Source: Ignavibacteria bacterium
GTDB lineage: Bacteria > Bacteroidota > Ignavibacteria > Kapaibacteriales > UBA2268
Length of the DNA: 64,000 nucleotides
Assembly: GCA_016844745.1 (NCBI GenBank)
Contig: JAERMQ010000009.1
Location: 7,184 to 71,183, forward strand
Direction of reading: 5' to 3'
This document shows positions 321 through 60,790 of this stretch, one piece after another. The stretch's first letter is position 1, and each line of letters opens with the position of its first letter. The position numbers were made by a program, and so were the translations under genes. Below the pieces are notes generated by a model. That model saw only the letters and a list, made by a program, of their open reading frames with translations, made no database searches and was not told the origin of the DNA.

Positions 321-682
321 GTCATTACTCCGGTTAATATTTCAATAAATTCTTTTGCTTTTTCCAAATTTTCTTTGGATTTCTTTTTATTTACTCCGCT
401 ACCATAATCTGTAAAGTTTCTTATACTCTGCATTTCGTACAAATAACTTTTATATTTAGACGGTAATATCTTTCTTCTATTGATAAATAAATCGGAAAAT
501 ATTGAATTCAATGCTTTATGGTCGATTTTCGGCTCATAACCTGATTGATAAACCGCTACCAGTGCTATATGAAATGCAGCATAATATGCCCTATTTGCAG
601 ACGCATTATATAAACCATTTTCAAATAGCATTTCTGCTGCTTTTAGATTTTCTTTTGAACGTTGATGGAAAGTTTCAATCAT
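317..682 (-). CDS. HEPN-domain protein (putative toxin/RNase component)
   Basis: 121 aa with a HEPN-like helical signature (ANRAYYAAFHIALVAV) and typical HEPN size. It is translationally coupled to the downstream small ORF. Confidence 0.55.
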   Translation of the reverse strand: MIETFHQRSKENLKAAEMLFENGLYNASANRAYYAAFHIALVAVYQSGYEPKIDHKALNSIFSDLFINRRKILPSKYKSYLYEMQSIRNFTDYGSGVNKKKSKENLEKAKEFIEILTGVMT

Positions 683-2250: not shown

Positions 2251-3900
2251 TTATCCTAACATAGGAATTTTTATGCCAAACTTTCCGGCATTTTCTTTAG
2301 CTCTTTCATAACCGGCATCGGTATGCCTGATTATACCCATCATCGGGTCATAAGTCAATACTCTTTTCAATCTAAGTTCGGCTTCTGCACTGCCGTCAGC
2401 TACTACAACCATACCTGCATGAAGCGATAATCCCATTCCGACTCCGCCGCCGTGATGGAAGGAAATCCATGATGCGCCGCCGATGGCATTCAATGCAAAA
2501 TTGAAATACACCCAGTCGGCAATAGCATCCGAGCCGTCTGCCATACCTTCGGTCTCACGATAAGGCGAAGCAACGGAACCGCAATCCAAATGGTCTCTTC
2601 CAATAACAATCGGCGCCGATACTTTGCCGGTTGCAACGAGTTCATTGAACATCAAACCTGCTTTTGCCCGCTCGCCATAGCCAAGCCAGCAGATTCTCGC
2701 AGGCAGCGCCTGATAACGAACATGCTTTTGCGCTTGAGTTATCCAGCGATGAAGCGGCTCATTATACGGAAATAATTCCATAATAGCATCATCGGTAACA
2801 CGAATATCCTCCGGGTCGCCCGATAGAGCTACCCACCGGAAAGGACCTTTGCCGTCGCAGAATAGAGGACGAATGTATGCCGGAACGAATCCTGGAAAAT
2901 CAAATGCATTCGTAACAGAATCATAATCCTTAGCTATTCCTCGTATGTTATTTCCGTAATCGAAAACAACAGAGCCACGTTTCTGAAATTCAAGCATCGC
3001 CCGAACGTGAGCGCCAATGGATTTATATGCTTTTTCAAGATATTCCGTTGGATTTGAAATTCTCAAATTATCAGCTTCATCTTTGCTAAGTCCTGCGGGA
3101 TAATATCCGTTCAGCGGGTCGTGGGCAGCAGTTTGGTCTGTTACGACGTCGGGAATAATTCCTCTAATCAATAGTTCGGGTAGAACTTCGGAAGCATTGC
3201 CAACCAATCCAATGGATAATGCAGTTTTAGTCAACTTGTGCTGCTCGACTAATTGCAGGGCATCGTCTAAAGTCTGAATCTTAACATTGCAATAACCATC
3301 ATGGATACGTTTATCAATGCGTTTTTCATCAATTTCAACTGTAATGGATACTGCACCTGCAAAATAGGCTGCAAGAGGCTGTGCGCCTCCCATTCCGCCC
3401 ATTCCGGCAGTTAATAAGAAACGTCCGGCAAGGGAGCCTCCGAAGTGGCTTCGGGCACATTCTGCAAATGTTTCATAAGTGCCTTGCAATATGCCTTGAG
3501 TGCCTATATAAATCCAGCTTCCTGCGGTCATCTGACCATACATCATCAAACCTAAACTATCCAAACGGCGGAATTCATCCCAGGTTGCCCATTTGGGGAC
3601 TAAATTGGAATTTGCGATAATTACTCTGGGCGCGGCTGTGTATGTTGGGACAACTCCGACTGGCTTGCCGGATTGAACGAGCAGTGTTTCATCTTCGTTC
3701 ATATTGGCAAGGGTATCGAGAATAGCGTCGTAACATTCCCAATTGCGTGCGGCTTTACCCAAACCGCCGTAAACTATTAAGTCTTGAGGCTTTTCGGCAT
3801 TTTCGGGGTCTAAGTTGTGTTGGAGCATACGCCAAGCGGCTTCAATCTGCCAGTTTTTGCAGGTTAGCTTGGTTCCTCTTGGTACTTTTACTTCGCGCAT
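2251..3900 (-). CDS. hutU: Urocanate hydratase
   Basis: 549 aa. The whole sequence looks like urocanase ([21 protein letters not shown]...[11 protein letters not shown]...). Confidence 0.93.
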
Positions 3901-4024
3901 GTTTTTTCCTTCTAAACTATTACAAATATAATAAAAATTTTAAATCCGACAAAACTAATCTTATTTAATATTAAAAATAATTTTTCTTGTTCAATTTCAC
4001 CTATAAAGCCTGATATAAAAGTCA

Positions 4025-4110
4025 GGAAGAATGTCATTCTGAACGCAGTGAAGAATCCAGTCCCAATGTGGCTTCTGGATTCTTCACTGCGTTCAGAATG
4101 ACATCCTTCT
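4025..4110. repeat. Long perfect inverted repeat (about 36-bp arms, atgtcattctgaacgcagtgaagaatccag, with an 11-bp loop); family A element
   Basis: Read directly. The same arms recur at 19681-19716/19851-19890 and as the outer arms of the composite elements at about 42299, 48018 and 60441. Confidence 0.85.
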
Positions 4111-4226: not shown

Positions 4227-4622
4227 ATGATGAGTTTAGAGGAACATATTGAACATTGGCTAAAGACTTCAGAGAAAGACCTTGAGTCGGCATCAAATAT
4301 GTTTTCAGCCGGAATTTATGATTGGTCTTTATTTGTTGCACATCTTGCTTTGGAAAAATTACTTAAAGCGCTTTGGATTCAAGCAAATCAGCAAGCATTT
4401 CCTCCAAAAATCCATAATTTGATGAAATTAGCCGAACAAGCCGGGATTGAATTAACTGAAGAGCAAGTTGAGTTTTTTAGGCTTGTTAATCAATTTCATT
4501 TAGAGGCAAGGTATCAGGAATATAAAGATGATTTTCAAAAAATTGCAACGAAAGAATTTTCAAATCATAATCTTATAAAAATCAAGGAAGTTTGTTTATG
4601 GTTGAAGTCCCAAATAATATAA
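4227..4622 (+). CDS. HEPN-domain toxin (HepT-like) of a HEPN/MNT toxin-antitoxin pair
   Basis: 131 aa with a HEPN helical core (VAHLALEKLLKALW). It overlaps the downstream nucleotidyltransferase gene. Confidence 0.65.
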   Translation: MMSLEEHIEHWLKTSEKDLESASNMFSAGIYDWSLFVAHLALEKLLKALWIQANQQAFPPKIHNLMKLAEQAGIELTEEQVEFFRLVNQFHLEARYQEYKDDFQKIATKEFSNHNLIKIKEVCLWLKSQII

Positions 4623-4915
4623 TCGAATCAATAAAGCGATTCGCTATCGAAGCTGAAAAAAATAATATCAATATCCAGCAGGCAATATTATTTGGTAGTT
4701 ATGCCAAAGGCAATAATACTGAATGGAGCGATATTGACGTTGCAGTTGTTTCGGAAAATTTTGAAGGAATCAGGTTTTATGATAATTTGAAACTCTCAAA
4801 GCCAGTAGTGCGAACAAATATTGATATAGAAACACACCCATTCCGTCCGGAAGATTTCACCGAAGATAATCCGTTCGTAAAGGAAATATTGGAATATGGA
4901 ATCAGGATAATTTAA
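4592..4915 (+). CDS. Minimal nucleotidyltransferase (MntA-like antitoxin)
   Basis: LFGSYAKGNNTEWSDIDVAVV is the classic pol-beta NTase G-S...DxD motif. About 105 aa. Confidence 0.8.
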   Translation: MFMVEVPNNIIESIKRFAIEAEKNNINIQQAILFGSYAKGNNTEWSDIDVAVVSENFEGIRFYDNLKLSKPVVRTNIDIETHPFRPEDFTEDNPFVKEILEYGIRII

Positions 4916-4955
4916 AAAAGCAAGACATCCAATGTTTTGCAAACATTGGATGTCT
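4847..4955. repeat. Left copy of a 109-bp direct repeat (3' end of the MNT gene plus the palindrome agacatccaatgtttgcaaacattggatgtct)
   Basis: About 90% identical to 7909-8017. Includes a 14-bp-arm hairpin that probably terminates the MNT gene. Confidence 0.8.
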
Positions 4956-6643
4956 TCTCCCTTTTGTCAAAGTTTTATTATATTAGGTCATCCAATGACC
5001 GGCAGCCACCGGAAGATTTAATAACAATAAAAGAGGGAATAAAAGAGTCTATATTTTATTATAGTGATGACGAACAGAGAATAAAAATGGAATATAAAGA
5101 AAATAATGTACTTCTTTATACTAAATACTATCTGGATGGTTACGAGCTAATCCAATATCCCGATAATACTACAAAAGAACTGACATCCTTAGGCGGGGAA
5201 GCAGTTGTAGTAAAAGATAGAAATAATGTAGTCAAAACTTATTACGTTCATACCGACCAATTAGGTTCACTTCAATGCCTGACCGATGAAAACGGCGATA
5301 TTGTGCCTAATGCGGAATTCAGCTTCGACCCTTGGGGTAAAATAAGGAAAAAGGATGACTGGACCCAGAATTATTCAAATGAATCCCAACTATCAACTTT
5401 TGATATTATTGGACGAGGATTTACCGGTCACGAGCACATGCCTCAATTCGGACTTATCAATATGAACGGGAGAGTATATGACCCAATGCTCGGACAGTTT
5501 ATTCAACCCGATAATAACATTCAATTCCCAAGCTATAGTCAAAATTACAACAGGTATAGTTATTGTCTCAACAATCCGGTTAATTTCACTGACCCATCGG
5601 GAGAGGACCTTGGTCCTGTACTCACGAGTATTCTTACTGGTGGTGGTTATAATATAAGTCATTCCGTAAGTCGAATTTACAATGCTTATCATAACTTTGG
5701 AAATGATGCCGGTAATGAAGTATTGTTTCAGACAATATTTTGGACTGGGTACTCGACAATTGCCGGTATGATGTTGGGACAAAGTTTGGATTTTCTTATC
5801 AGCTCTTTTGCGAATCCAGGTATAAGTTCGAAAGCAAATGATGTTGCATCAGCGATTTCACCAAATAACCCTCCTGGTGGTTATGTATCAACTGACCAAG
5901 GATTATTGTCAACCATTAATTTTGGTCCAGGAGCTTCCGTTTCTAACGCAGCATCTAATATTGCTCCAAGACTTGCCTTATCAACTGGAGGGAAAATTGG
6001 AGCTGCTGCAGGAGCGGTAATAGGTGCTTGGGCAGTCACAAAAAGTTGGAATGCACAATATATTGCAAGTTATCGTTCTTTTGCCTCACGAAGGGCTAAA
6101 GAGTATCAAGTAGCAGGAACACCATTTACTTGCGAAGATTTAGTTTTACAGATTTTAATTGATTTTGCTAGCCAAAATCAACTACCGGTTGTATTAAATA
6201 TAAATGGTATAACTTATAACGCTGCTGATAGTCGTTGGGGGGGTGATATTAAGGAATTTAGAGATGAACTTTTTAACATTACAGCTTCATCCCATCTTCA
6301 GAATAGCGATAATACAGTTGGGATAGGATATGATGATTTACTTCCCGGAGATATGTTACTTCAAGTACTATATCCAAATGGAGTCAGCAATCATGCTCAA
6401 GAAGTAGTAGATGTAAATAAATATTTTATTGAAATAATTCAAGGAAATACTAAGAGTTCATATTTTGGATCAGGTAAACCATCTCAAAGTAATTATATAG
6501 GAACTCCTCTAAATAATTCCTATTTCAATAGGGCAAATGGCAATTTTTTTAGTGGTCGTACTAGAACATTAGAGAAATTTAATAAACTAAAACAATTTCA
6601 AGGTAAAAGATGGAATTTTGATAAATTTAATAAATGGAGATGA
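4937..6643 (+). CDS. Orphan Rhs-family C-terminal fragment: RHS core end (…DPxGE) plus a ~340-aa variable C-terminal toxin domain, with no N-terminal YD-repeat body
   Basis: YYVHTDQLGSLQ..FDPWGK..GFTGHEHMPQFGLINMNGRVYDPMLGQFIQPDN..NRYSYCLNNPVNFTDPSGE is the canonical RHS repeat-associated core terminus. The only start is a TTG inside the upstream terminator hairpin, in frame with the MNT stop, so this is probably a silent or displaced cassette. Confidence 0.7.
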   Translation: MQTLDVFSLLSKFYYIRSSNDRQPPEDLITIKEGIKESIFYYSDDEQRIKMEYKENNVLLYTKYYLDGYELIQYPDNTTKELTSLGGEAVVVKDRNNVVKTYYVHTDQLGSLQCLTDENGDIVPNAEFSFDPWGKIRKKDDWTQNYSNESQLSTFDIIGRGFTGHEHMPQFGLINMNGRVYDPMLGQFIQPDNNIQFPSYSQNYNRYSYCLNNPVNFTDPSGEDLGPVLTSILTGGGYNISHSVSRIYNAYHNFGNDAGNEVLFQTIFWTGYSTIAGMMLGQSLDFLISSFANPGISSKANDVASAISPNNPPGGYVSTDQGLLSTINFGPGASVSNAASNIAPRLALSTGGKIGAAAGAVIGAWAVTKSWNAQYIASYRSFASRRAKEYQVAGTPFTCEDLVLQILIDFASQNQLPVVLNINGITYNAADSRWGGDIKEFRDELFNITASSHLQNSDNTVGIGYDDLLPGDMLLQVLYPNGVSNHAQEVVDVNKYFIEIIQGNTKSSYFGSGKPSQSNYIGTPLNNSYFNRANGNFFSGRTRTLEKFNKLKQFQGKRWNFDKFNKWR

Positions 6644-7719: not shown

Positions 7720-7909
7720 GAATATTGGTCTGCCTTCCATGCGATGAAAAGTTCTCATGGCTATTATAACTTTAAGTATCCATATCCCTTAATCCTACCA
7801 ATCCTAATTCAGACATTTTCCACCTTTACCATCGCTTTCAGCGTTCGCATAAGAATTATTTGCCATCCTATCGATGAAGTCGATGGTATGGCTGTAAAAA
7901 CAATGCTGC

Positions 7910-7978
7910 CCGGAGGATTTCACGGAAAATAATCCTTTCGTTAAGGAAATATTGGAATATGGGATAAGGATAATATAA
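7910..7978 (+). pseudogene. Remnant of an MNT nucleotidyltransferase C-terminus (PEDFTENNPFVKEILEYGIRII*)
   Basis: Translates to a near-identical copy of the last 22 aa of the MNT at 4592..4915, with an in-frame stop just upstream. Part of the right-hand 109-bp direct repeat (7909-8017). Confidence 0.55.
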
Positions 7979-8037
7979 TAAAACAAGACATCCAATGTTT
8001 GGCAAACATTGGATGTCTAATTTATTGCATCATTATT

Positions 8038-11000
8038 TTATTTATTTACTACAAATTTCCTGATTATCATTTCACTTTCATTCTGCAACATAATCAAATA
8101 AATACCATTTGTTATTTTGCTAAGGTCAATTTGCTTTCTATATGTGTCTTCGGTCAGATTAATGTTTTCTTCATATATGGATTCTCCAAGCAAAGTCATT
8201 AATTTTAACTTCATTTTAGAAGGATTTATTGTATTATATTCAATATTCAGGACATTTCCAGTTGGAATCGGATATATTTTTAATTTATTCGCTGTAATTT
8301 GTGTTTCAACTACATCAGTTGTAAAATAATATGGGTCGGAAAATACCGAACAGCCGTTTAAATCCGTATATTTAACTTTGTAAAAGCCTGTTTTTTCTGA
8401 CGTATAATATTGATAAACAGCATAAGTTATTAATGAATCCTTGTAATACCATTGATTACCCGTCGAATAATTCGATGCCAAATCAGTACCGCCACGCGTT
8501 ATAATCGGTTTTTCCGGTAGTTTATTGATAATTATGCTTTGCGAAGTGGAATCTTTAAAACCACTTTGTAGTATTGTTTGAACCACTTTAATCGAACCTG
8601 TTCCTGCTAGACCCCAATTGACTATAATGGAATCTTTGGTATTCGAACCGCTAATGGAGCCTCCTGTCACCGTCCAAACATTAACAGCGCCAGACTTTTT
8701 AGTAGTTTTATAATTCTCAATATCATATTCGCAAGCCGGTGATTTACCTAATATTGTAGGCTTTAATGAATTTGTAATTGTAACGTGTTGAAAAGCAGAA
8801 TCTACACAACCTGTTGCGGTAACAATCTGCAATAAATTAATTGTACCAACTCCAACGCTTCCCCATGTTACGGTTATTGAAGAATTTGTTGTAGAACCGT
8901 TGATAATGCCTCCGACTACCGACCAATTATTGGAAATACTGATATTATTTAATGTTTCATAAGTTTTCGTGCTATTTGGTAAGATAGTGAATTCCCCGGT
9001 TATTGTGGGTGTTGGTAGTTGATTTACTGTAACGGGGATTTCGATTGAGTCCGCACATCCTGTTGATGAAATAGTTTGAATTAACTTGACATTACCTATT
9101 CCGGCATTTCCCCATTTTATTACAACAGAATTTATTGTTGATGAGCCTAAAATTGCACCATTAGTGACTCTCCATCGATTAACTGTTCCCGCTTGAGTAT
9201 CCGTCTTATATTGGGCAACACTTTTAGCACATAAAGAAGTATCTCCGGTAATTTTTGGAACTGGCAGGGGATTGATCATTACTTCAAAATTAGTGGAATC
9301 TTTGCAGCCTTCGTTACTTTTTTGAATTAGGATTACTGTCCCTGAACTGGCTGATGACCATAATATATTGACAAAAGTACCTGATGTCGAACCTTGAATT
9401 GTTCCTCCTATAACATTCCATGTACAAGAAGTAACTGTGGTTATTGTGTTAGATGTAAAAGAGGAAATACTATTCGCACAAACTTTTGTAAGTCCGGTTA
9501 TAACAGGAACAGGCAAAGGACTGATTGTAATTTGCTTAGATGTAGAATCACGGCACCCGGTTAAATTATTTGATTGAATTAAATATATTGTGCCGCTGCG
9601 GGCATTATTCCATAGAATATTTACAAAAGTTGAAGATGCACTGCCCTGTATTGTTCCCTGTATTACCGACCATAGACAGGAAACTCCTACCGATGATGTA
9701 GCGCTATATAAACTTATATTACCGGTACACACAGATGTGCTTCCCGTTATATTCGGCTTTGGTAATGGATTTATTATTATGGCTGTTTTTATTGAATCCC
9801 TGCAATTATTATAAATATTGGTTTGAGTAAGGGTAATAGTGCCGCTTGGAGAACTTCCCCAAGTAACATTAATAAAATTTGAAGAAGTGGAACCGGTGAT
9901 TGTACCGCTTGATACATACCATTGATTTAAAACATCAACAGGTGTAGAGCATGAGTAGATGTATGGATTCGTTTCGCAGACCGATGTCTGACCATTAATT
10001 GAAGGTGATGGCTTAGAAAGAATAGTAATATTACTTCCATTGTCCGAACCTGTAACAATTGGGGAGGAAGAAACAACTCGAATCCTATAACCCGAACCTA
10101 TTGGTGTATTTGTTGGTATCGCTACAGAAATAGTCCCGGAGCTGGTTCCTACAACAGAACCAATCATCACAGGACTACCGAAACTGCCGGATGAATTTGA
10201 TAATTGAACGGTGAAGGTATTGGATGAATTATATGTTCCAGTGATTGTAAATGGAATTACTAAATAATCTCCGGAACAAAAACTACTACCGCTTAAATTT
10301 CCGATATTGATGGATGATACATCCATAAGTCCTATTGTATGATTACCTCCGGACTTAATTTCAGACCATTTAGAACTATTGCCTATCCGAACAGGTGAGC
10401 TTTTACTTGTTGTTGTACCGTCGCCTAATTGTCCAATATTGTTCCAGCCAAAAGCCCACAAAGTACCATCATTTTTGATACTAAATGTACTATTAAAACC
10501 ACATGAAACATTTGCCCAATTTGTACTACTTCCGATTTGAAAAGGGGAATGTTTTTCAGTTATCGTACCATCACCTAATTGTCCATTATTATTTAATCCC
10601 CAAGACCATATAGAGCCGTCACTTTTTTTGGCAATTGAGTGGTAGCTACCGCAGGAAACCAATACCCAATTTGTATCACTACCGATTTGTATTGGGGAAT
10701 TTTTTTGTATAGTTGTTCCATCACCTAATTGACCTGAACCATTACTACCCCATGCCCATAATGTGCCATCGTTTTTAACACCAAGGGAAAAATCAAGTCC
10801 GCCGGAAACAGAGACCCAATTTGTATCGGCTTCGATTTGAACCGGGTAATTTATATCAATGGTTGTACCATCTCCTAGTTGTCCGAAACTATTTAATCCC
10901 CAAGCCCATAAAGAGCCATTACTCTTTATGGCAAGAGAATGGTCGCCACCGCAGGAAACTTTTACCCAATCAGTACTGCTTCCGATTTGCACTGGATTGG

Positions 11001-11445
11001 TTTTCGTTGTAGTAGTGCCATCTCCAAGCTGCCCATCGATATTTAATCCCCAAGCCCATAAAGTGCCATCGTTTTTAATTGCATGAGTATGTGCACTTCC
11101 ACATGATATTGATAGCCAATTTGTTCCGGAACCGATTTGTACCGGGGAAATCTTGTTTGTTGTGCTGCCATCACCTAACTGTCCGTAGTCATTAATTCCC
11201 CATGCCCACAACGAACCGTCACTTTTAATAGCAATGGTAAATTCTTCACCGCAAGAGGATTTAATCCAATTTGTGGCAGCGCCGATTTGCGTTGGCGAGT
11301 ATTTTACATCTGTTGTACCGTCGCCCAACTGTCCATAGTTATTAGCGCCCCATCCAAACAAAGCATAATTATTTTGCGAAAAAGCAAAGAAAGGGATTAG
11401 ACATAATATTATAAGAAATGAAAAGAAAGTTGTCAAGATTTTCAT
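8038..11445 (-). CDS. Large T9SS-secreted protein: N-terminal RCC1-like beta-propeller repeats, about 7 tandem ~80-aa Ig/PKD-like repeats, and a T9SS C-terminal domain
   Basis: Repeated YGQLGDGTT...S.G..H..A motifs (RCC1). Repeated NPLP.P.ITG...W.V.GG.I.GS...V.WG..G.G.I.L.Q....GC.DS modules. C-terminal KIYPIPTGNVLNIEY...GIYLIMLQ sorting domain. Signal peptide present. Confidence 0.75.
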   Translation of the reverse strand: MKILTTFFSFLIILCLIPFFAFSQNNYALFGWGANNYGQLGDGTTDVKYSPTQIGAATNWIKSSCGEEFTIAIKSDGSLWAWGINDYGQLGDGSTTNKISPVQIGSGTNWLSISCGSAHTHAIKNDGTLWAWGLNIDGQLGDGTTTTKTNPVQIGSSTDWVKVSCGGDHSLAIKSNGSLWAWGLNSFGQLGDGTTIDINYPVQIEADTNWVSVSGGLDFSLGVKNDGTLWAWGSNGSGQLGDGTTIQKNSPIQIGSDTNWVLVSCGSYHSIAKKSDGSIWSWGLNNNGQLGDGTITEKHSPFQIGSSTNWANVSCGFNSTFSIKNDGTLWAFGWNNIGQLGDGTTTSKSSPVRIGNSSKWSEIKSGGNHTIGLMDVSSINIGNLSGSSFCSGDYLVIPFTITGTYNSSNTFTVQLSNSSGSFGSPVMIGSVVGTSSGTISVAIPTNTPIGSGYRIRVVSSSPIVTGSDNGSNITILSKPSPSINGQTSVCETNPYIYSCSTPVDVLNQWYVSSGTITGSTSSNFINVTWGSSPSGTITLTQTNIYNNCRDSIKTAIIINPLPKPNITGSTSVCTGNISLYSATSSVGVSCLWSVIQGTIQGSASSTFVNILWNNARSGTIYLIQSNNLTGCRDSTSKQITISPLPVPVITGLTKVCANSISSFTSNTITTVTSCTWNVIGGTIQGSTSGTFVNILWSSASSGTVILIQKSNEGCKDSTNFEVMINPLPVPKITGDTSLCAKSVAQYKTDTQAGTVNRWRVTNGAILGSSTINSVVIKWGNAGIGNVKLIQTISSTGCADSIEIPVTVNQLPTPTITGEFTILPNSTKTYETLNNISISNNWSVVGGIINGSTTNSSITVTWGSVGVGTINLLQIVTATGCVDSAFQHVTITNSLKPTILGKSPACEYDIENYKTTKKSGAVNVWTVTGGSISGSNTKDSIIVNWGLAGTGSIKVVQTILQSGFKDSTSQSIIINKLPEKPIITRGGTDLASNYSTGNQWYYKDSLITYAVYQYYTSEKTGFYKVKYTDLNGCSVFSDPYYFTTDVVETQITANKLKIYPIPTGNVLNIEYNTINPSKMKLKLMTLLGESIYEENINLTEDTYRKQIDLSKITNGIYLIMLQNESEMIIRKFVVNK

Positions 11446-11502
11446 AAGATACTCCTGATGATATGAATTAGTATTAAGATTCCTTTATTTTAAATTAATA
11501 TT

Positions 11503-11600
11503 GTCTGAACCACTGATTAATCTGATTAAATGATTTCATTGATTATTAAATATACTTTATCTGAGTAATCCATAAATCAGTTTAATCAGTGGTTCAGACG
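11503..11600. repeat. Family C palindromic element (~98 bp, 18-bp terminal inverted repeats gtctgaaccactgattaa), copy 1
   Basis: Read directly. A second full copy lies at 12449-12546, with partial copies at 12270-12302 and 43613-43660. Confidence 0.8.
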
Positions 11601-12202: not shown

Positions 12203-12448
12203 TTAAGGTTAATAAAAAATATACAAAACATTCAAACAAATTCAAAGTATCTTTTTCTTTCAACCATGCAATCCTTAAATTCGTTTAATCAGTGGTTCTG
12301 ATGACTTTTTAACTTCTCATCTCAAGTTGTATTTTTATCTCAAATCGCTGATTGTAAGCCACTTGTTTTAACTTCTTAAAGATATTTTAATTGAATTAAT
12401 TTTAATAGCATAAATTTAACCAAGATTTTTTAATAATCCAAATGAAAA

Positions 12449-12546
12449 TTGTCTGAACCACTGATTAATCTGATTAAATGATTTCATTGATTAGAAAAAA
12501 ACTAATCTGTGTAATCCTTTAATCCGTATAATCTGTGATTCGGACA
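12449..12546. repeat. Family C palindromic element, copy 2 (right inverted repeat degenerate)
   Basis: About 90% identical to 11503-11600 over the left ~45 bp. The two copies bracket the HigB/HigA module. Confidence 0.75.
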
Positions 12547-14126: not shown

Positions 14127-14141
14127 ATGAATTAAAACGAA

Positions 14142-14224
14142 CCAAGAGAAACCCCCTAACCCCCTTTAAAAAAGGGGGAAATTCTATCCCCCTTTTTTAA
14201 AGGGGGTTAGGGGGTTTCTCTTGG
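14142..14224. repeat. GC-rich nested 'core' palindrome (ccaagagaaaccccctaaccccc ... gggggttagggggtttctcttgg)
   Basis: Perfect 23-bp outer arms enclosing two ccccc-ttt/aaa-ggggg sub-hairpins. It stands out against roughly 35% GC background. Sits between the POT stop and the next gene start. Confidence 0.85.
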
Positions 14225-14263
14225 TTAAAAGGATGTGAGTATATAACAATCAATAATTTAATA

Positions 14264-18878: not shown

Positions 18879-19016
18879 TTGAGTCCACTCTAAAAAGCAT
18901 TTTTAGTGATAATTACATTCCAAAATCGGAATTTTGGAATGAGAAATATCAAGAACTTGCTAATTCCAAAGTTGTACTTTGGAATTAAATTTTTGGTTTT
19001 TAGATAGGACTCAATG
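18879..19016. repeat. Family B ~135-bp element with terminal inverted repeats (gagtccactctaaaaag…) and two internal hairpins (attccaaaa-ccgg-aatttttggaat; attccaaagt-tgt-actttggaat), copy 1
   Basis: About 90% identical to 34035-34173. Both copies start about 15-30 bp after the stop codon of a plus-strand gene. Confidence 0.8.
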
Positions 19017-19064
19017 TTCGTAAAGGGGAAAAGGGAAGAGGAAAAGGGAAAAGTATGAAGAAGT

Positions 19065-19096
19065 ACTTTCCGAAAGTTTCCCTAATTTCGGAAAGT
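19065..19096. repeat. 13-6-13 palindrome copy 3 (inverted orientation, 1-nt deletion), followed by ttttt and so terminator-like on the + strand
   Basis: actttccgaaagt-ttccctaa-tttcggaaagt-ttttt, 30 bp upstream of the thioredoxin-like gene. Confidence 0.7.
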
Positions 19097-19126
19097 TTTT
19101 ACCATCATCAGAAAGTCTAGAGAAAA

Positions 19127-19680: not shown

Positions 19681-19890
19681 AAGAAGAATGTCATTCTGAA
19701 CGAAGTGAAGAATCTTCTACAACCTAAGATGGATGTCTTTGAGGTAAAGAATGAATCATGATTATTCAAGAAAAGCATCAATTCTAATTCTTATAGAAAG
19801 GATTAAATAATTTTGGAAAATCAAAAAAAACTTTTCAGATTTTGCAAGAAGATTCTTCACTGCGTTCAGAATGACATTCTTCTTTCTTTT
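19681..19890. repeat. Family A element with a 135-bp internal spacer (arms aagaagaatgtcattctgaacgaagtgaagaatcttc / agaagattcttcactgcgttcagaatgacattcttctt)
   Basis: Read directly. The arms are about 90% identical to the 4025-4110 palindrome. Confidence 0.8.
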
Positions 19891-25676: not shown

Positions 25677-25917
25677 AAAATGATTCCTTGATATATTGAT
25701 TTAACCTGTTATTTATTCAATTTTACTTATCGTTCTTAATTCAACATTATTACTACGTTATAAGTAATGAATAACAAATTAGTCTGGTATTTGTTACAAT
25801 AGAATTTTTTTTTAAGTGAAGTTCTGAATAATGATGTGTTTCAAATAATATCCTTTCCTATTTGGGATAGAACAAACAAGGATGTTTATTCTACCCTTAA
25901 GTAGGTCAAACATCCCT

Positions 25918-26048
25918 GTTTGACTATATGTTGCATTTCATTTTTGATATGTTTGACTTTTGTTGCATTTCATTTAAGATATGTTTGACTATTTGTTGCA
26001 TTTCATTTTTGATATGTTTGACTATTTGTTGCATTTCAATTAAGATAT
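25918..26048. repeat. Tandem array of 4 x ~33 bp (gtttgactatttgttgcatttcatttttgatat)
   Basis: Four contiguous units, 85-100% identical, with no spacers, so not CRISPR. Preceded by a hairpin ggatgtttattctacccttaagtaggtcaaacatcc. Confidence 0.85.
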
Positions 26049-26186
26049 GATAAAGTTCATTTATAGGGTAGAATCTGACTGGCTAATTATTTTTGGATTT
26101 TGAATCAAGTTGCCAATGACAAAATTTTCTACCTTTTATTTTGAACAATTTATTGAAACAAAAATATATGCAACAATTAACACTTA

Positions 26187-26276
26187 GAGAAATCCCCCCT
26201 ACCCCTTTTTCAAAGGGGGATAAGAAAAATATTCTTCAATCCCCCTTTGAAAAAGGGGGGTAGGGGGGATTTCTCT
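26187..26276. repeat. GC-rich nested core palindrome (gagaaatcccccctacccc…ggggggtaggggggatttctc), 3' of nosY
   Basis: Near-identical to the cores inside the composite elements at 42395-42485 and 48078-48170. Confidence 0.85.
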
Positions 26277-26363
26277 TGAATTTGTCATTTTTTATTTTTA
26301 TTATGCCGAAATTTTGGAGTACAGAATAACAATTTCAAAATAAATGTGATTTATTAAGATAAT

Positions 26364-27182: not shown

Positions 27183-27280
27183 GAGAAATCCCCCCTACCC
27201 CCCGGTTATAGAAGTAGAACATTGAAGTAGAAGTAGAAATAAATCCCCCTTTGAAAAAGGGGGGTAGGGGGGATTTCTTC
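27183..27280. repeat. Core palindrome arms with an inserted 'cggttatagaagtagaacattgaagtagaagtagaa' module, in the nosF-nosY intergenic spacer
   Basis: Read directly. Both the outer arms and the inner ccccctttgaaaaaggggg hairpin are retained. Confidence 0.85.
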
Positions 27281-29259: not shown

Positions 29260-29308
29260 CTATATTAAGTTTTATAATCTTTAAAATTTTTGTAACTTCT
29301 ATTAAAAA

Positions 29309-29424
29309 GAGAAACCCTCTAACCCCCTTTGAAAAAGGGGGAACTCTTCTTCTTCTATTTCTACTTCTACTTCTATGTTCTACTTCTATGTTCTACTTCT
29401 ATAACCGGGGTTAGGGGGTTTCTC
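29309..29424. repeat. Core palindrome arms flanking a (tagaagtagaa)n tract, in the nosL-nosD intergenic spacer, with T-runs on both sides
   Basis: gagaaaccctctaaccccctttgaaaaaggggg…ctacttctacttctatgttctacttctat…ggggttagggggtttctc-tttttt. On the transcribed (minus) strand the hairpin is also followed by ttttt. Confidence 0.85.
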
Positions 29425-29431
29425 TTTTTTC

Positions 29432-34034: not shown

Positions 34035-34173
34035 TTGAGTCCACTCTAAAAAGCATTTTTTGTGAAAATTACATTCCAAAACCGGAATTTTTGGAATGAG
34101 AAATATCAAAGACTTACTAATTCCAAAGTTGTACTTTGGAATTTAATTTTTTACTTTTTAGAGTGAATTCAAT
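34035..34173. repeat. Family B ~135-bp element, copy 2
   Basis: About 90% identical to 18879-19016. Begins 13 bp after the response-regulator stop codon. Confidence 0.8.
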
Positions 34174-36700: not shown

Positions 36701-36730
36701 AATTATTTAAGTTCCTATCAAAAGAAGAAA

Positions 36731-36835
36731 AACCCCCTAACCCCCGGTTTTAGAAGTAGAACATGGAAGTTGAATATAGAAGTAGAAAAAATTCCCCCTT
36801 TTTCAAAGGGGGTTAGGGGGTTTTTCTTCTTTTGA
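36731..36835. repeat. Core palindrome arms plus a tagaagtagaa module (gaagaaaaaccccctaacccccggttttagaagtagaacatggaag…ccccctttttcaaagggggttagggggtttttcttc)
   Basis: Read directly. Same architecture as 27183-27280. Confidence 0.85.
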
Positions 36836-40735: not shown

Positions 40736-42275
40736 ATTTTTGCGTAAAACAAGGCTGCTCGTTTTAGCAGCCTTGTTTTTATATTTGAATTTAGAAGCTC
40801 AAAAGGTTATTTCTGATACATGCTTACCTAAAGGATATAATAGGAACATTGATTCAACAATAACAGAATCAGGAAATGATGTAAAAATTTACAATTTTGA
40901 TTTTACCGAACAAGTCAATCAATTGTTAATTGGCGGTAATACAAGTCAATCTGAAAACGTGATTTTAACCAAAGGAAATAATAATTGGAAGGTAATATTT
41001 CGAGACAGGTCTGTTTCTAATAAGAGTGAAGGATTAATTCATAATCCAAAAATGGTTACAGATTATAAAAGAATAGGTAATTATTTTTACATTTTATGTG
41101 GAAGACATGGATACGTTATGTCGGGCATTTATGATTCAGTAACAAATAAAACTTATAATGTCGATACTGTGGCAGCCAAAGCCTATATTTTAGTTGGAAA
41201 TTTATTGGATTCTACATTTAAAAAAATAATCAAATTGGAGGAATACTATGCAAACCAATTCTTCTATTTTGAGAACTACGGATGGATAGTTGCAGGGCAG
41301 GAATATATCTATAAATTCAGCAAAGATTTCGATACTCTTTATGAGAAACTCCCTATTACTCCATCAGAATTGAAAGAGTACAGGCTTACCGATGTGAAAT
41401 ATTTTATCAATACTCAGACTTGCGCAGCAATATCCCCGGATACTATATACTTTAATTTCGTAAAAATTACCGATGCTCAGAAAATGGCTTCAATACCGGT
41501 TTATGAAGCAGCATTGTATAGAACGGTTGATGGGTGTAAATCTTTTGAAAAGCTTAATTTACCCATCAATAAATTTGGCTATATATATTTTAAAAATGCT
41601 CTTGAAGGCTATTATAGCGGTCAGTTCTATTTTTATCCTTATGCCGGATACGTTTCTATGATTTCCTTTATTTTCAGAACAAAGGATGGCTGCAAAACAT
41701 GGGATACATTAGTATATAATAACAATTACAAAATCAATATTAATTTCCCCGTTCCAGTATCATGCGATTACGGTGCTTATATGAAATTTTATAATAATGG
41801 TCGATTGGGAGTGTCAACATCGAGCAATACAGAAATATATTTATCTACGGATTATGGCTCTAATTGGAAACAATTAGTACCGTTCGACACAGTAACAAAA
41901 TGTTTTTCAGCTAGAAGCTATATAGGGTATTTTTCTAATTGTCTTTACAATGGAACGCTATACTGGGGTTCGTCTTTTGAAACAAGGTATTTTACTTATT
42001 CAAACGAAATCCTTGGCGTTGAGGATGTAGTGGAAATGCCGATAGAAATAAATTCCGGAAATAAATTTCTTATATCAGGCGACTATTTAATATTAAATGA
42101 TGAATTATTAACTGAAATCAAGTATCCGGCAGATTATATTCTTTTTTCTTCCATCGGTCAATTACTAAAAAGTTCAGTAGTAATAGATAACAGGATTGAC
42201 TTATCAGGTTTTCCCGCAGGTGTGTATACAATTATAATAAATCAAAGCACTAAAATAATGATTATTAAATATTAA
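40725..42275 (+). CDS. Hypothetical T9SS-secreted protein
   Basis: The start was chosen at MLNRFLRK… (signal peptide …YLNLEAQ), overlapping the upstream stop by 11 nt. The longest ORF starts at 40692. C-terminal DLSGFPAGVYTIIINQSTKIMIIKY is a T9SS CTD. Confidence 0.5.
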   Translation: MLNRFLRKTRLLVLAALFLYLNLEAQKVISDTCLPKGYNRNIDSTITESGNDVKIYNFDFTEQVNQLLIGGNTSQSENVILTKGNNNWKVIFRDRSVSNKSEGLIHNPKMVTDYKRIGNYFYILCGRHGYVMSGIYDSVTNKTYNVDTVAAKAYILVGNLLDSTFKKIIKLEEYYANQFFYFENYGWIVAGQEYIYKFSKDFDTLYEKLPITPSELKEYRLTDVKYFINTQTCAAISPDTIYFNFVKITDAQKMASIPVYEAALYRTVDGCKSFEKLNLPINKFGYIYFKNALEGYYSGQFYFYPYAGYVSMISFIFRTKDGCKTWDTLVYNNNYKININFPVPVSCDYGAYMKFYNNGRLGVSTSSNTEIYLSTDYGSNWKQLVPFDTVTKCFSARSYIGYFSNCLYNGTLYWGSSFETRYFTYSNEILGVEDVVEMPIEINSGNKFLISGDYLILNDELLTEIKYPADYILFSSIGQLLKSSVVIDNRIDLSGFPAGVYTIIINQSTKIMIIKY

Positions 42276-42298
42276 AGGGGTTCTAAAAATTACAAATT

Positions 42299-42598
42299 GT
42301 TCCTGCGGATGAGGCTACGTGAAAAGTCAATAAAATTGTCATCCTGAACTCCAAAATACTAAGAATAATAAAAATAAAAAATGACAAATTCAAGAGAAAT
42401 CCCCCCTACCCCCCTTTTTCAAAGGGGGATAAGAAAAATATTTATAAATCCCCCTTTGAAAAAGGGGGGTAGGGGGGATTTCTTAAACTTGAAATTATTG
42501 AACTTTTTTGAATTAAGAAAAATCTGTCATTGGTAACTTGATTCAGGATACATAAACCGCACTGGGAGGGGATTCCTGTATCCGCAGGAATGATATTC
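42299..42598. repeat. Composite ~300-bp element (outer arms, a 'gtcattctgaac'-type inner arm, GC-rich core palindrome, structured right half containing the conserved loop ccgcactgggag), copy 1
   Basis: Collinear with the elements at 48018-48290 and 60441-60736, all in the same orientation. Begins 24 bp after the stop of the upstream gene. Confidence 0.85.
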
Positions 42599-42606
42599 TT
42601 TAATTT

Positions 42607-43509
42607 TTAGAACCTCCCTTTATTGAATCCGTTCTTAATAAGAAATTGCTCCAATGTCATGCAGTTCAGGTATTTATCTTTGCAATTTTTTATGGCGGTT
42701 TCAATTTCCGGTGGATAGGGAGGACGTCCGTTTTTTTCAGATAATAGCCGCATCTTGTAGAATTCTTTTGCAAAAAGTTTCATTGCGAATGTAGGTTCTG
42801 CCTTATATTCAAAAGACTCGCCATCATTAATTTTACTCAAAAGCGCAGCTAACTCATTTCCCGAAACAAAATCTGTTATCAGGTTCATCTCAATATTATG
42901 ATAATACTTTTGGAACTGGAAGGCAATAGTTACAAACTCGCCAATATCCTTGCTTGAGATATATGGTATTTTTGCATCGCCATCGGTGGAGCCTTTGATA
43001 ATACCATCCTTGATAGGAAAGTAGGGGGCGCCTAAATTATCCATAAATGTAGCTAATTTGAAAATTGTAAAGGGTACAGTTCCTTCCCGAATATTATTTT
43101 CCAGCATTAATTTACTTTCTAAATGCGGTATTCCGGTTTCTTCCATTCCAATACTCAGGACGGAAGTAAATACAAGGTGCCTTATACCGGATTCACGGCA
43201 TGCTTCAATAATATTCCTGCCCTGTTTCATTTCTTCTTTAGTACTGACTTTTTTATAATCTTTCGACCATGGTTGAGTTAAACCGAACACACCATGTGCA
43301 TTTTTAAAAGCTGCTAATAATGAGGCTTTATCATTTAAGTCACCAAACATTACATCTGCTCCCTTTTCATATAAGGCATTAGCCGAAACATTATCCGGAT
43401 ACCGGGTTAAGGCAACAACATGAAAATCTCTTGAACGAAGCAATGCATCTACTACTGCACCACCCTGGTTTCCTGTTGCACCGCATACAACTATTGTATT
43501 TTTTGCCAT
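42607..43509 (-). CDS. NmrA-like NAD(P)-binding protein
   Basis: N-terminal Rossmann fold (IVVCGATGNQGGAVVDALL) and NmrA-like length of 300 aa. Confidence 0.75.
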   Translation of the reverse strand: MAKNTIVVCGATGNQGGAVVDALLRSRDFHVVALTRYPDNVSANALYEKGADVMFGDLNDKASLLAAFKNAHGVFGLTQPWSKDYKKVSTKEEMKQGRNIIEACRESGIRHLVFTSVLSIGMEETGIPHLESKLMLENNIREGTVPFTIFKLATFMDNLGAPYFPIKDGIIKGSTDGDAKIPYISSKDIGEFVTIAFQFQKYYHNIEMNLITDFVSGNELAALLSKINDGESFEYKAEPTFAMKLFAKEFYKMRLLSEKNGRPPYPPEIETAIKNCKDKYLNCMTLEQFLIKNGFNKGRF

Positions 43510-43515
43510 AGATTT

Positions 43516-43714
43516 TTAATTGTTAATTGTCAATTGTTAATTTGTCTGAATTAGGATTTTTAGGATTATAAGATTATAGGATAAATAATTCATAATTCAT
43601 AATTCATAATTCGTAATTTTCTGAACCTTGATTTACCTGATTAAATGATTACCATGATTATTTTTTATAATTAGTAATTAGTAATTAGTAATTAGTAATT
43701 AGTAATTAGTAATT
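43516..43714. repeat. Three heptamer microsatellite arrays (taattgt x3-4; cataatt x4; taattag x6) plus a partial family C element at 43613-43660
   Basis: Read directly. Located between the NmrA-like gene start and the 3' end of the 759-aa gene. Confidence 0.85.
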
Positions 43715-47943: not shown

Positions 47944-48017
47944 TCTTTATTGTTTTTCTCAAATCTTTCGAATTGTCATTCAAGCATTAGAGATTGTGTG
48001 AAAACTATCAATAATAG

Positions 48018-48290
48018 AAGAATGTCATTCTGAACTCCAAAATAATGGAATTAATAATAATATGCAATAACAAATTCAAGAGAAATCCCCCCTACCCTCC
48101 TTTTTCAAAGGGGGATAAGAAAAATATTCTTCAATCCCCCTTTGAAAAAGGGGGGTAGGGGGGATTTCTCTAAGTTGAAATTTTTGCTAATTTTTGAATC
48201 AAGAAAAATCTGTCATTGGTAACTTGTTTCAGAGTCCAGAAGCAGCATTGGGACTGGAATCTTCACTTCGATTACGAATGACATTCTTCT
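48018..48290. repeat. Composite ~275-bp element, copy 2 (family A arms gaagaatgtcattctgaac / gaatgacattcttc enclosing the GC core and structured right half)
   Basis: Collinear with copies 1 and 3. The core at 48078-48170 is about 98% identical to 26187-26276. Confidence 0.85.
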
Positions 48291-48480
48291 TGACTTTTTA
48301 CACAACCTCATTCACAGGAATGACTATTTATATAGTATTGCTCTTTTAAATCTGTTCAAATAACTACCGTTTCATTATTTTATTGAAACGGCAGTTTTTA
48401 TAATTTGGCATTATAAAATATTTTTTTTAATTTTGTAGTCTGTATAGTTTACAAAACTATTTGATATGAAATTATTTCAT

Positions 48481-59916: not shown

Positions 59917-60411
59917 ATGATTTTACCTAAAGAGACAAAAAAGATTTTAAAAAAAATTGATTATACTTTAACCGGAAAGTGCTTTGAGCCTGATACTACA
60001 GGGAAAATAAATGAAAATATATTTTCCGGATTATCCGATAAAAATCTGGGGAAACTGGAATTTTTACTTCATAAAATTGCCCCCGAATGTACGATTCAGA
60101 AATTTGTTGCAATGCTTGCTACTGAAATTCAAATGCAAGCACAATGGGATATTCTAAATGCCGCTTCGGAAGACGATGACCTGGATAAAGAGGACGTTGA
60201 AACTGAAGAAGATGAGGATTGGGACGAAGAGGACGAAGATTGGGATGAAGACGACGAAGATTGGGATGAAGATGAAGACGAAGATTGGGATGAAGATGAA
60301 GACGAAGATTGGGAAGATGATGACGATGACGTTGATGATGACGATGACGATGACGTTGATGATGACGTTGATGAAGACGAAGATTGGGAAGATAATGAAG
60401 AAGTAGTTTAA
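59917..60411 (+). CDS. Small protein with an extremely acidic, Trp-punctuated repetitive C-terminus (EDEDWDE repeats, then D/V-rich)
   Basis: A 164-aa ORF. The last ~75 aa are at least 85% D/E, with W every 7-9 residues, encoded by 21-24-bp tandem DNA repeats. The N-terminal 90 aa are non-repetitive. Confidence 0.45.
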   Translation: MILPKETKKILKKIDYTLTGKCFEPDTTGKINENIFSGLSDKNLGKLEFLLHKIAPECTIQKFVAMLATEIQMQAQWDILNAASEDDDLDKEDVETEEDEDWDEEDEDWDEDDEDWDEDEDEDWDEDEDEDWEDDDDDVDDDDDDDVDDDVDEDEDWEDNEEVV

Positions 60412-60440
60412 ATATTTAGGTTGGTTCTTGAAACTCTTTA

Positions 60441-60736
60441 ATTGTCATTCCTGCGAATGAGCTGTGTGAAAAGTCAAAAAAATTGTCATTCTGAAATCCA
60501 AAATACGGAACTTAATAAAAATATGCAATGACAAATTCAAGAGAAACCCCCTAACCCCCTTTGAAAAAGGGGGAATTTTTTGTCCCCCCTTTTTCAAAGG
60601 GGGTTAGGGGGTTTCTCTCTGTTGAAATTGTTGCCATTATTTTAAATCAAGAAAAATCTGTCATTGGTAACTTGATTCAGAATCCATAATCCGCACTGGG
60701 AGTGGGTTCTGAATCAGTTCAGAATGACAATCTTCC
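60441..60736. repeat. Composite ~300-bp element, copy 3
   Basis: Collinear with copies 1 and 2. The core variant is gagaaaccccctaaccccctttgaaaaaggggg…ccccccctttttcaaagggggttagggggtttctc. The right-half hairpin is tgattcagaa-N25-ttctgaatca. Confidence 0.85.
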
Positions 60737-60750
60737 TTTTTTGATACGAA

Positions 60751-60790
60751 AAAAAAACACCGGATTAACTCCGGTGTTTTTTGCAAGTAG
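60751..60790. terminator. Bidirectional intrinsic terminator (aaaaaaaaacaccggattaactccggtgtttttt)
   Basis: A perfect caccgga/tccggtg hairpin flanked by an A9 run and a T6 run, directly 3' of rpmA. Confidence 0.8.

Follow-up and report, generated by a model that had tools for sequence, protein, structure and literature searches.

What kind of repeat has come to lie behind several genes of an Ignavibacteria bacterium? The stretch analysed here, called the window throughout, comprises 64,000 nucleotides of contig JAERMQ010000009.1 (assembly GCA_016844745.1, positions 7,184 to 71,183 of the forward strand) and carries composite elements of about 300 bp. An earlier reading of the same DNA, the original prediction, took these elements for a structured RNA or a miniature inverted-repeat transposable element (MITE) and claimed compensatory covariation in a hairpin of their right half. 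The present analysis makes it probable that they are mosaic repeats similar to repetitive extragenic palindromes (REPs) and bacterial interspersed mosaic elements (BIMEs), that is, copies of ~300-360-bp nested palindromes that are non-coding and non-autonomous. The known kind to which they correspond is the CGTC/TGTC REP mosaic, with a behaviour like that of BIMEs and of REP doublets forming hairpins (REPINs). The right half of each element is a head-to-head (REPIN-like) pair, in which the left unit is the stem-disabled TGTCATTGGTAAC and the right unit belongs to a copy-specific subtype. The middle of the elements is a separate family of G5/C5 palindromes.

Anatomy of the elements and the right-half hairpin

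Three collinear copies are found on the plus strand of the window, at 42296-42598 (copy 1), 47971-48328 (copy 2) and 60441-60736 (copy 3). MAFFT alignment of 42270-42640, 47950-48340 and 60415-60790 gave a common module order with long invariant blocks and a mean column identity of 82%. By BLAST, the copies are 86-92% identical in pairs (88% over 210 nt for copies 1 and 2; 86-92% for copies 1 and 3). Both comparisons bear out the description of three copies with one orientation and one order of modules. The limits given for copy 2 (48018-48290) were too narrow, and the count of three holds for the plus strand only: a fourth, degenerate and truncated copy was overlooked on the minus strand at ~26100-26340. 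Copy 4 retains the left arm, AATGACA, the GC core and TGTCATTGGCAACTTGATTCA, and is without the spacer motif and the right arm. Its GC core (26186-26276) is 94-98% identical to the cores of copies 1 and 2 (BLAST). Four tandem 33-nt units (TGTTTGACTATATGTTGCATTTCATTTTTGATA) lie beside it at 25917-26059, the site where a right arm would be expected. The composite elements showed no coding potential. A small open reading frame (ORF) from the ATG of AATGACA to the TAA of TGGTAA was considered and discarded, being in frame in copy 1 only; in copy 2 the ATG is missing, and in copy 3 the frame is not kept.

Every copy is a set of nested palindromes, which from the outside inwards are outer arms, inverted termini, a GC palindrome and a right-hand REP pair. 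The outer arm, TTGTCATTCCTGCGAATGAG...GAAAAGTC, has an inverted partner in copy 2, a partial one in copy 1 and none in copy 3. The inverted termini are of the type (AGAAGAA)TGTCATTCTGAA ... TTCAGAATGACA, and further inside AATGACAAATT pairs with AATCTGTCATT. The arms of the G5/C5-rich palindrome measure 34-38 nt and are 97-100% complementary. The right-hand module reads TGTCATTGGTAAC-TTG[A/T]-TTCAG.., followed by a 17-nt spacer and an inverted TGTC-tagged arm. As whole elements, copies 1-3 form closed multibranch folds of -125 to -130 kcal/mol (z -11.4 to -12.6).

In copy 1, the plus strand carries the outer-left arm (42296-42336), the left module TGTC-ATCCTGAA (42337-42348), AATGACA (42380-42386), the TGTCATTGGTAAC unit (42525-42552, with the 3' half-stem TTCAGGAT at 42542-42549) and the spacer with GCACTGGGAG (42559-42568); the GC-core palindrome occupies 42395-42483, and the right inverted REP unit, of the ATTCCTG-CGGATA-CAGGAAT type, ~42570-42595. 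A perfect 14-nt inverted repeat (GGTTCTAAAAATTA at 42279-42292, TAATTTTTAGAACC at 42601-42614) brackets copy 1, which therefore occupies the centre of another palindrome; the right arm of this repeat overlaps the stop codon of a convergent NmrA-like gene. Copy 2 is bounded by 34-nt outer arms, 71% complementary (47971-48004 and 48295-48328), and by the inner inverted repeat AGAAGAATGTCATTC (15 nt, 100%; 48016-48030 and 48276-48290). Within these lie the left module (48023-48034, plus strand), AATAACA (48066-48072), the GC core (48079-48171), the TGTCATTGGTAAC unit (48211-48238, plus strand), the spacer GCATTGGGAC (48245-48254, plus strand) and a right arm of the subtype seen in a solo element at 4030-4106. 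In copy 3, the outer-left arm (60441-60482), AATGACA (60527-60533), the TGTCATTGGTAAC unit (60659-60686) and the spacer GCACTGGGAG (60693-60702) are on the plus strand; the inverted termini are AAAATTGTCATTCTGAA (60479-60495) and TTCAGAATGACAATCTT (60718-60734), the GC core (60540-60618) is of the subtype of a solo element at 14140, and the hairpin arms lie at 60673-60686 and 60703-60716.

The REP character of the units is seen in their parts. An unpaired tag, TGTC, begins at 42525, 48211 and 60659 on the plus strand; on the minus strand the tag is TGTC at 48283 and 60729 and TATC at 42595. Both CGTC and TGTC tags occur at related loci in other genomes. Stems of 8-9 bp starting with AT are present in the right units (TTCTGAA/TTCAGAA in copy 3, ATTCCTG/CAGGAAT in copy 1) and in the canonical units of the chromosome OW818654 (ATTCTGAA-CTTGT-TTCAGAAT), which is discussed below. 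The TGTCATTGGTAAC unit on its own is without such a stem, because its 5' half-stem has been replaced. The loops are CTTGA, CTTGT or CTGA (4-5 nt), copies 2 and 3 have a CCA tail and copy 1 has ACA, and the spacer CCGCACTGGGAG / CAGCATTGGGAC / CCACATTGGGAC is common to the right modules of copies 1-3 and to the solo dimer at 4030-4106.

Does the right-half hairpin covary? Every string quoted in the original prediction is present at the place claimed, the stems of this hairpin being TGATTCAGAA/TTCTGAATCA in copy 3 (60673-82/60707-16), GGATACA/TGTATCC in copy 1 (42546-52/42577-83) and TCCAG/CTGGA in copy 2 (48235-39/48254-58). The compensatory changes read from them were not upheld, the stems being out of register, unstable in two of the three copies and within the range of shuffles in their score. 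In an alignment of the three right modules with the solo element 4030-4106, the quoted stems use different column pairs: the copy 3 stem joins columns 18-31 with 48-61, the copy 1 stem is displaced by about eight columns, and the copy 2 stem is the tip of the copy 3 stem, with one-sided differences only. Folded alone as RNA, the copy 3 hairpin is the sole stable one (-35.1 kcal/mol, z -6.6). The copy 1 hairpin equals its shuffles (z +0.03) and reaches its minimum energy without the quoted stem, and the copy 2 hairpin is marginal (z -1.9). On the copy 3 structure, the covariation score was 0.19 against 0.154 +/- 0.035 for shuffles, 90/500 of which scored as high, and 80.4% of cells were paired against 77.6% in shuffles.

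The right arms differ because they belong to three different REP subtypes, making the pairs hybrid head-to-head dimers. Read on the minus strand, the copy 3 arm is TGTC-A-TTCTGAA-CTGA-TTCAGAA-CCCA and the copy 1 arm is TATC-ATTCCTG-CGGATA-CAGGAAT-CCC, which folds on itself. The motif described as a retained loop is indeed present in all three plus-strand copies (GCAYTGGGA, confined within the window to the three composites, with a one-mismatch form at 4030-4106) and is better read as the conserved spacer of a head-to-head dimer. In dimers from other genomes, the variable position of the TGGYAA unit is mismatched with its head-to-head partner in 10 of 16, and the partner's own stem is Watson-Crick in 13 of 16. 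True covariation is found at the level of the REP unit, the split unit described below included, and not in the hairpin first proposed. A false candidate for a covariation-supported RNA is removed in this way. The other half of the proposal, a MITE, stands in a broad sense (multi-copy, non-coding, bounded by inverted repeats, with recurring modules) and fails for classical DDE-type ends, the building blocks being REP units.

Modules also occur outside the composites, in both orientations. A solo GC-core palindrome with 40-nt arms of 100% complementarity lies at 14140-14226 (strand unassigned), and its part at 14143-14221 is 90% identical to the copy 3 core (BLAST). A GC-core variant with a different loop, CCCCCCTACCCCCC ... 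GGGGGGTAGGGGGG, is found at 27184-27280, and similar variants at 29306-29430 and 36722-36830. The GC core has two subtypes, and each resembles a stand-alone or non-composite copy more than it does the remaining composites; the copy 3 core shares with those of copies 1 and 2 only exact blocks of 19-20 nt. The core junctions are identical among copies despite the two subtypes. Dimers of TGTCATTCTGAA stand outside the composites at two sites. One is the solo head-to-head REP dimer at 4030-4106, a near-perfect 77-nt palindrome with CCACATTGGGAC, the spacer motif with one mismatch, on the minus strand. The other (19681-19888) shares the 38-nt inverted termini, AAGAAGAATGTCATTCTGAACGAAGTGAAGAATC, which here enclose an unrelated AT-rich interior of 128 nt. 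Ends of the GTCATTCTGAA type, with one mismatch allowed, number 11 in 64 kb, 9 of them inside these repeat elements, and the pattern TGTCATTCYTG matches at 11 sites in the window, where chance would give 2.4. That elements are nested in palindromes, dimers are hybrid and cores have been swapped points, as a whole, to recurrent insertion, gene conversion or both among dispersed repeats of the palindromic type. Just downstream of the solo REP dimer lies a HEPN/MNT toxin-antitoxin-like pair (4227-4915), composed of a HEPN-domain ORF (4227-4622, plus strand) and an overlapping nucleotidyltransferase ORF (4592-4915, plus strand); another HEPN-domain ORF is found at 317-682 (minus strand).

Related genomes and the split hairpin

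How widespread are these mosaics? The motif TGTCATTGGYAACTTGNTTCA was scanned against a set with one genome per species, to which the source genome does not belong. Matches were obtained at 68 loci, all in Bacteroidota sensu lato save for a match within an ORF of one Bacillota contig. The taxa include Pedobacter, Niabella, Bacteroidales, Prolixibacteraceae, Tangfeifania, Chitinophagales, Kapaibacterium and Ignavibacteria. The exact sequence of copy 2 was absent from this set, a metagenome collection had no match to a composite-specific gapped pattern or to the left arm plus spacer motif, and a contig-level search returned solely a 1.9-kb Logan contig (SRR13434397). A phage collection gave no match and a plasmid collection a GC-core match only, in Pseudanabaena. 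There, a GC-core-like palindrome, GATCCCCCCCAGCCCCCCTTGAAAAAGGGGGGAG...TCCCCTTTTTTCAAGGGGGATTGAGGGGGATC, lies at ~148-228 of the locus L070 (Pseudanabaena galeata plasmid pPg_02, NZ_CP112876.1 145059-145428), between brxA-family and brxE genes of a bacteriophage exclusion (BREX) system. This match means that the G5/C5 palindrome type is not limited to one phylum, occurring in Cyanobacteria as well as Bacteroidota.

One 4.49-Mb chromosome, OW818654.1, has 17 matches in 16 loci. Its canonical unit is TGTC-ATTCTGAA-CTTGT-TTCAGAAT-CCA, and a homologous mosaic core, ~247 nt long (TGTCATTCTGAAG..AAAATGACA..G5/C5 hairpin..AAGATGTCATTGGTAACTTGTTTCAGAATCCA), is present in at least 13 copies. The flanks of these copies diverge directly outside the REP-derived ends, and some eight of the copies sit inside a larger element whose limits are the inverted repeats GGGGCTGTCTCAAAAGG and CCTTTTGAGACAGCCCC. 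A dependence of orientation on the replichore was considered and dropped, the 17 matches being mixed on both halves of the chromosome. In two short forms (L002 and L033), TGTCATTGGTAAC follows immediately after the outer inverted repeat. This arrangement fits a deletion between TGTCATT direct repeats or an insertion just 5' of the TGTCATTGGTAAC unit, and it speaks against a simple insertion into a canonical REP. Tandem partial duplications of the core were noted at ~1588-2178 and 3698-4045 of locus L030 (OW818654.1 3816001-3824000), with the junction TGTCATTGGTAA|ATATGCAAAATGACA; they suggest recombination between TGTCAT-containing motifs. In the metagenome-assembled genome PL25a_bin.72 (Bacteroidales), 12 of 13 TGGCAAC units lie ~40-200 nt from the end of a contig, and the 60 nt upstream of them are identical (L014, L016, L022, L035, L044, L045, L051, L053, L054, L058, L062 and L069). 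The mosaic is abundant enough in this genome to break short-read assembly.

An end architecture is shared by 22 distinct copies in at least 10 genomes, which span Sphingobacteriales, Bacteroidales, Chitinophagales and Kapaibacterium/Ignavibacteria. On the left, YGTC-ATNCTGAR is followed after 30-34 nt by RATGACA; on the right, 165-421 nt downstream, stands TGTCATTGGYAA-CTTGT-TTCAGN'AT. In ~600 kb of sequence, 21 of 23 left modules have a TGGYAA unit at most 520 nt away, the exceptions being a contig end and a tandem rearrangement. The left half-stem ATNCTGAA is complementary to the TTCAGN'AT next to TGTCATTGGYAA, giving a long-range helix of 8 bp. Its variable pair N/N' is UA in 9 copies, CG in 4, GC in 4, AU in 1, GU in 1 and unpaired in 3. 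Covariation over the whole long-range structure scored 0.122 against 0.056 +/- 0.008 for shuffles, none of 500 reaching that value, and slid controls were all far lower. While TGTCATTGGYAA is invariant across the 22 copies, the half-stems match each other and the local REP variant. In the window, copy 1 (ATCCTGAA/TTCAGGAT, C-G) and copy 3 (ATTCTGAA/TTCAGAAT, T-A) differ in a compensatory manner, and copy 2 has a T-G wobble.

The long-range pairing looks like a REP hairpin split by an insert of 120-370 nt, and its covariation is confounded by this origin in a REP hairpin. The signal may stem from selection on the helix (as single-stranded DNA or RNA), from insertion into local REP hairpins or from concerted evolution. 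It is doubtful, and at most a tentative proposal, that the mosaic core is a phylum-wide conserved element, a CGTC-type REP hairpin split by an insert with fixed ends, and not a chance nest of repeats. Such a core would represent either a class of REP-targeting non-autonomous mobile element that has yet to be described or a structured single-stranded DNA or RNA with a selected base helix. The first of these options could lead to the missing mobilising enzyme of the CGTC REPs.

Gene context and competing explanations

The elements were said to begin 20-75 bp past stop codons, and this is confirmed at 24, 75 and 30 bp past the stops at 42275, 47943 and 60411; with corrected element starts the distance narrows to 21-30 bp. 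The neighbours in the window are ordinary housekeeping genes, which encode an NmrA-like reductase, a PorZ-like protein and an ABC-2 permease or are ribH, gap, rplU and clpX; copy 4 lies downstream of the minus-strand ABC-2 permease gene. The 527-aa ORF named as a type IX secretion system (T9SS) cargo gene is at most a putative one: in Pfam at E <= 0.001 its sole match, to Sortilin-Vps10, was sub-threshold, and a T9SS sorting domain was not found. Upstream of copy 3, the 164-aa ORF 59917-60411 carries at its end a long acidic repeat of D, E and W (DEDWDE-type, with a period of 9-24 nt) and has no Pfam match. On the plus strand 3' of copy 2, a hairpin with a T-run (CCGTTTCA...TGAAACGG, then TTTTT; 48359-48399) is likely, from its sequence, the intrinsic terminator of gap, which would place copy 2 in the 3' untranslated region (3'UTR); a terminator consensus scan restricted to loops of <=8 nt missed it for its longer loop. 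Just past copy 3 is a bidirectional intrinsic terminator with an A-run, a 13-bp stem and a T-run (60752-60782, both strands). Copies 2 and 3 each have a stop codon before them and an intrinsic terminator behind them, which makes their transcription as part of a 3'UTR probable; the same is probable of the composites generally. At related loci, the mosaics lie between convergent (~9), unidirectional (~9-11) and, rarely, divergent (2) genes, and both orientations are represented. This distribution is the usual REP pattern and makes no strong case for an RNA specific to the sense strand. A sigma-54 or Bacteroidetes promoter in TGGYAACTTGTTTCA was considered and rejected on inspection, the -12 GC and TAnnTTTG elements not fitting.

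The favoured explanation remains the REP/BIME-like mosaic, which would spread as a unit into the 3' ends of genes and the centres of existing palindromes. Spread may occur in trans, through an enzyme that recognises hairpin and tag on single-stranded DNA, by analogy the IS200/IS605 TnpA or the Y1/HUH REP-associated transposase. Modules would be swapped by recombination or gene conversion among dispersed copies, and the hairpins in 3'UTRs may affect mRNA ends as a by-product or secondary role of a selfish repeat. Several observations weigh against this explanation. The source genome, which lies outside the scanned collections, is represented by only four composite copies. No transposase was found among 20 window ORFs checked, no repeated ORF adjoins the units in 69 loci, and no presence/absence polymorphism was observed at one orthologous site, for which reason mobility is inferred and not demonstrated. 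Furthermore, mosaic ends and a covarying pair conserved in at least 10 genomes suggest more constraint than a decaying selfish repeat would have.

Could that constraint be exerted on RNA? A selected structured RNA, either a cis-element of the 3'UTR or a small RNA, would keep its hairpins for RNA pairing, with roles in transcript stabilisation, termination or protein binding. The position of copies 2 and 3 ahead of terminators agrees with it, as do the orientation of all four window copies, which are directed like the gene upstream, the very strong folding of copies 1-3 and the GC core, which holds terminator-like stems with T-runs after them. The ATNCTGAA/TTCAGN'AT helix, with four Watson-Crick pair types and G-U on the top strand, also argues in its favour. 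However, the co-orientation does not extend to unidirectional contexts in other genomes, where 5-7 mosaics are co-oriented and 4 anti-oriented, the hairpin claimed for the right half has neither stability in two of three copies nor covariation above shuffles, and pairing at the level of the dimer is disrupted in most dimers from other genomes. Modules are exchanged between copies. At the gathering threshold, the Rfam 15 matches in the window were all tRNAs, and 16 related loci had none; by E-value, only generic long-hairpin (miRNA-type) matches below threshold were obtained, on both strands. A selected structured RNA is considered unlikely. The long-range helix can instead be read as the trace of a mobile insert that is non-autonomous, ~120-370 nt long and conserved at its ends, with RATGACA ~31 nt from its start and TGTCATTGGYAA forming its end; it would target canonical REPs where the 5' half-stem gives way to the loop, in the manner of IS1397 or IS110-type elements. 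Insertion into a REP hairpin leaves flanking halves that are complementary automatically. The matching half-stems and invariant TGTCATTGGYAA of the 22 copies, a score reached by none of the 500 shuffles, the near-constant TGGYAA unit behind left modules and the compensatory difference between copies 1 and 3 are all in keeping with this possibility, and the placement of copy 1 in a palindrome and of OW818654 copies in a larger element bounded by inverted repeats adds to it. On the other hand, no gene was found between the conserved ends within 6 kb at any locus, where an autonomous version was sought, and the 'empty-like' loci L002 and L033 carry a TGGTAA variant and not a canonical REP. The window copies are homologous well beyond the REP halves, which indicates spread as larger units, and matching halves could likewise arise if the REP variants of a genome evolve in concert. 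Site-specific insertion is considered improbable, in about the same degree as a selected RNA, and neither possibility excludes the REP/BIME-like mosaic.

That the elements are a DDE-type MITE of the classical sort, whose parent insertion sequence would have had the terminal inverted repeats TGTCAT...ATGACA, has a very low probability. The elements do possess perfect or near-perfect terminal inverted repeats (in copies 2 and 3, 15-17 nt with a complementarity of 94-100%; in copy 1, 11 nt), TG...CA ends, a size typical of MITEs and an AT-rich interior, and the element at 19681-19888 combines the same 38-nt termini with another interior. Against this, the target-site duplications by which the original prediction would have recognised a MITE are found at no border; the 14-nt repeat flanking copy 1 is inverted, not direct. 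No parent insertion sequence with the same termini was detected in the window or in 69 loci, and tag, stem, loop and tail mark the termini themselves as REP units. An integron attC-like site was also considered, and its core motifs do not fit.

The reading as REP-type mosaic repeats explains several percent of the intergenic DNA of the window, and masking of these elements is advisable for gene callers and RNA-motif finders. CGTC-type REPs are a large superfamily for which no transposase is known, and the split-hairpin mosaic with its invariant TGTCATTGGYAA, the part that deserves follow-up, provides concrete substrates for tests of hairpin-specific nucleases or transposases in Bacteroidota. 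It also offers a defined 3'UTR element for the study of mRNA 3' ends.

Other repeats share the window with the mosaics. A palindromic family, AACTTTCCGAAAGTAGGGAAACTTTCGGAAAGT, unrelated to the TGTC units, occurs in both orientations at 17-52, 1010-1045 and 19064-19099. A further small family is a 70-nt repeat, 90% identical at 18932-19001 and 34089-34158, with the hairpin AATTCCAAAG-TTGTA-CTTTGGAATT. A 59-nt repeat (..TGTCTGAACCACTGATTAATCTGATTAAATGATTTCATTGATTA..) is present at three intergenic sites (11492-11550, 12440-12498 and 43607-43665), and a 140-nt direct repeat, 82% identical, at 4840-4979 and 7903-8042, 3 kb apart, its first copy lying partly within the 3' end of the nucleotidyltransferase ORF. 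The minus-strand ORF 8038-11445 (1135 aa) contains six to seven tandem coding repeats of 150 nt (50 aa) with 64-73% identity at 10348-11375 and probably encodes a repeat-domain protein.

Comparison with known repeat classes

A literature search by sequence strings returned nothing relevant. CGTC-REPs have been reported in Bacteroidetes and Chlorobi (Di Nocera, De Gregorio & Rocco 2013, PMC3733652). Their tag is often TGTC, their stems of 8-9 bp start with AT, their loops measure 4-5 nt and their short tail is mostly CCA (PMC3733652). They form mainly head-to-head dimers, often heterodimers, with conserved spacers, and lie near the 3' ends of ORFs between convergent or unidirectional genes; some dimers are found within longer palindromes, and no transposase is associated with them (PMC3733652). 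The elements of the window resemble these REPs, the CGTC-2 type especially, in tag, loop and CCA tail, in the stems of the right units of copies 1 and 3, in their head-to-head (hetero)dimers, conserved spacers and sites 3' of ORFs, and in the dimers within longer palindromes and the want of a linked transposase. The peptide RHSELVSGS, listed in a supplement as encoded by CGTC-2 (PMC3733652), can be encoded by CGTCATTCTGAACTTGTTTCAGGATCT, the canonical unit type of the present elements, according to a back-translation made here. Differences are also evident. The left unit of the dimer is stem-disabled, with ATTGGYAA in place of ATYCTGAA, and its 3' half-stem pairs with a half-stem 170-420 nt upstream. 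Around the units there is here a larger conserved mosaic that includes a G/C-rich palindrome, and PMC3733652 describes none of this kind.

REPINs (Bertels & Rainey 2011; Quentin et al. 2018, PMC6006769) likewise consist of two inverted REPs that form one long hairpin. Their proposed dispersal is non-autonomous, through mobilisation of single-stranded DNA by a single-copy Y1/HUH enzyme. Two Y1 subclasses, 2.4 and 2.6, are abundant in Bacteroidetes and have 'atypical secondary structures' at their flanks (PMC6006769). Unlike in the system of REPINs and REP-associated tyrosine transposases (RAYTs), the tag here is TGTC/CGTC and not the guide tetranucleotide GTAG/GTGG, no RAYT gene was seen next to any copy, and the mosaic is far larger and contains unrelated palindromes.

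The BIMEs of E. coli and the dRS3/Correia clusters of Neisseria are comparable as intergenic mosaics that combine REP units and other motifs in a fixed order, with 3'UTR sites and modular variants. They belong to a different phylum and are unrelated in sequence, and the arrangement here is not tandem but nested in layers like an onion. REP-targeting insertion sequences such as IS1397/ISKpn1 and members of IS110/IS1111 (IS621, ISPpu10) are autonomous and encode a transposase or recombinase. In contrast, the insert considered here is 120-370 nt long and non-coding, and no autonomous relative was found. Should the split-REP reading be right, the two would nevertheless be alike in their point of insertion, which in both cases would lie within a REP hairpin.

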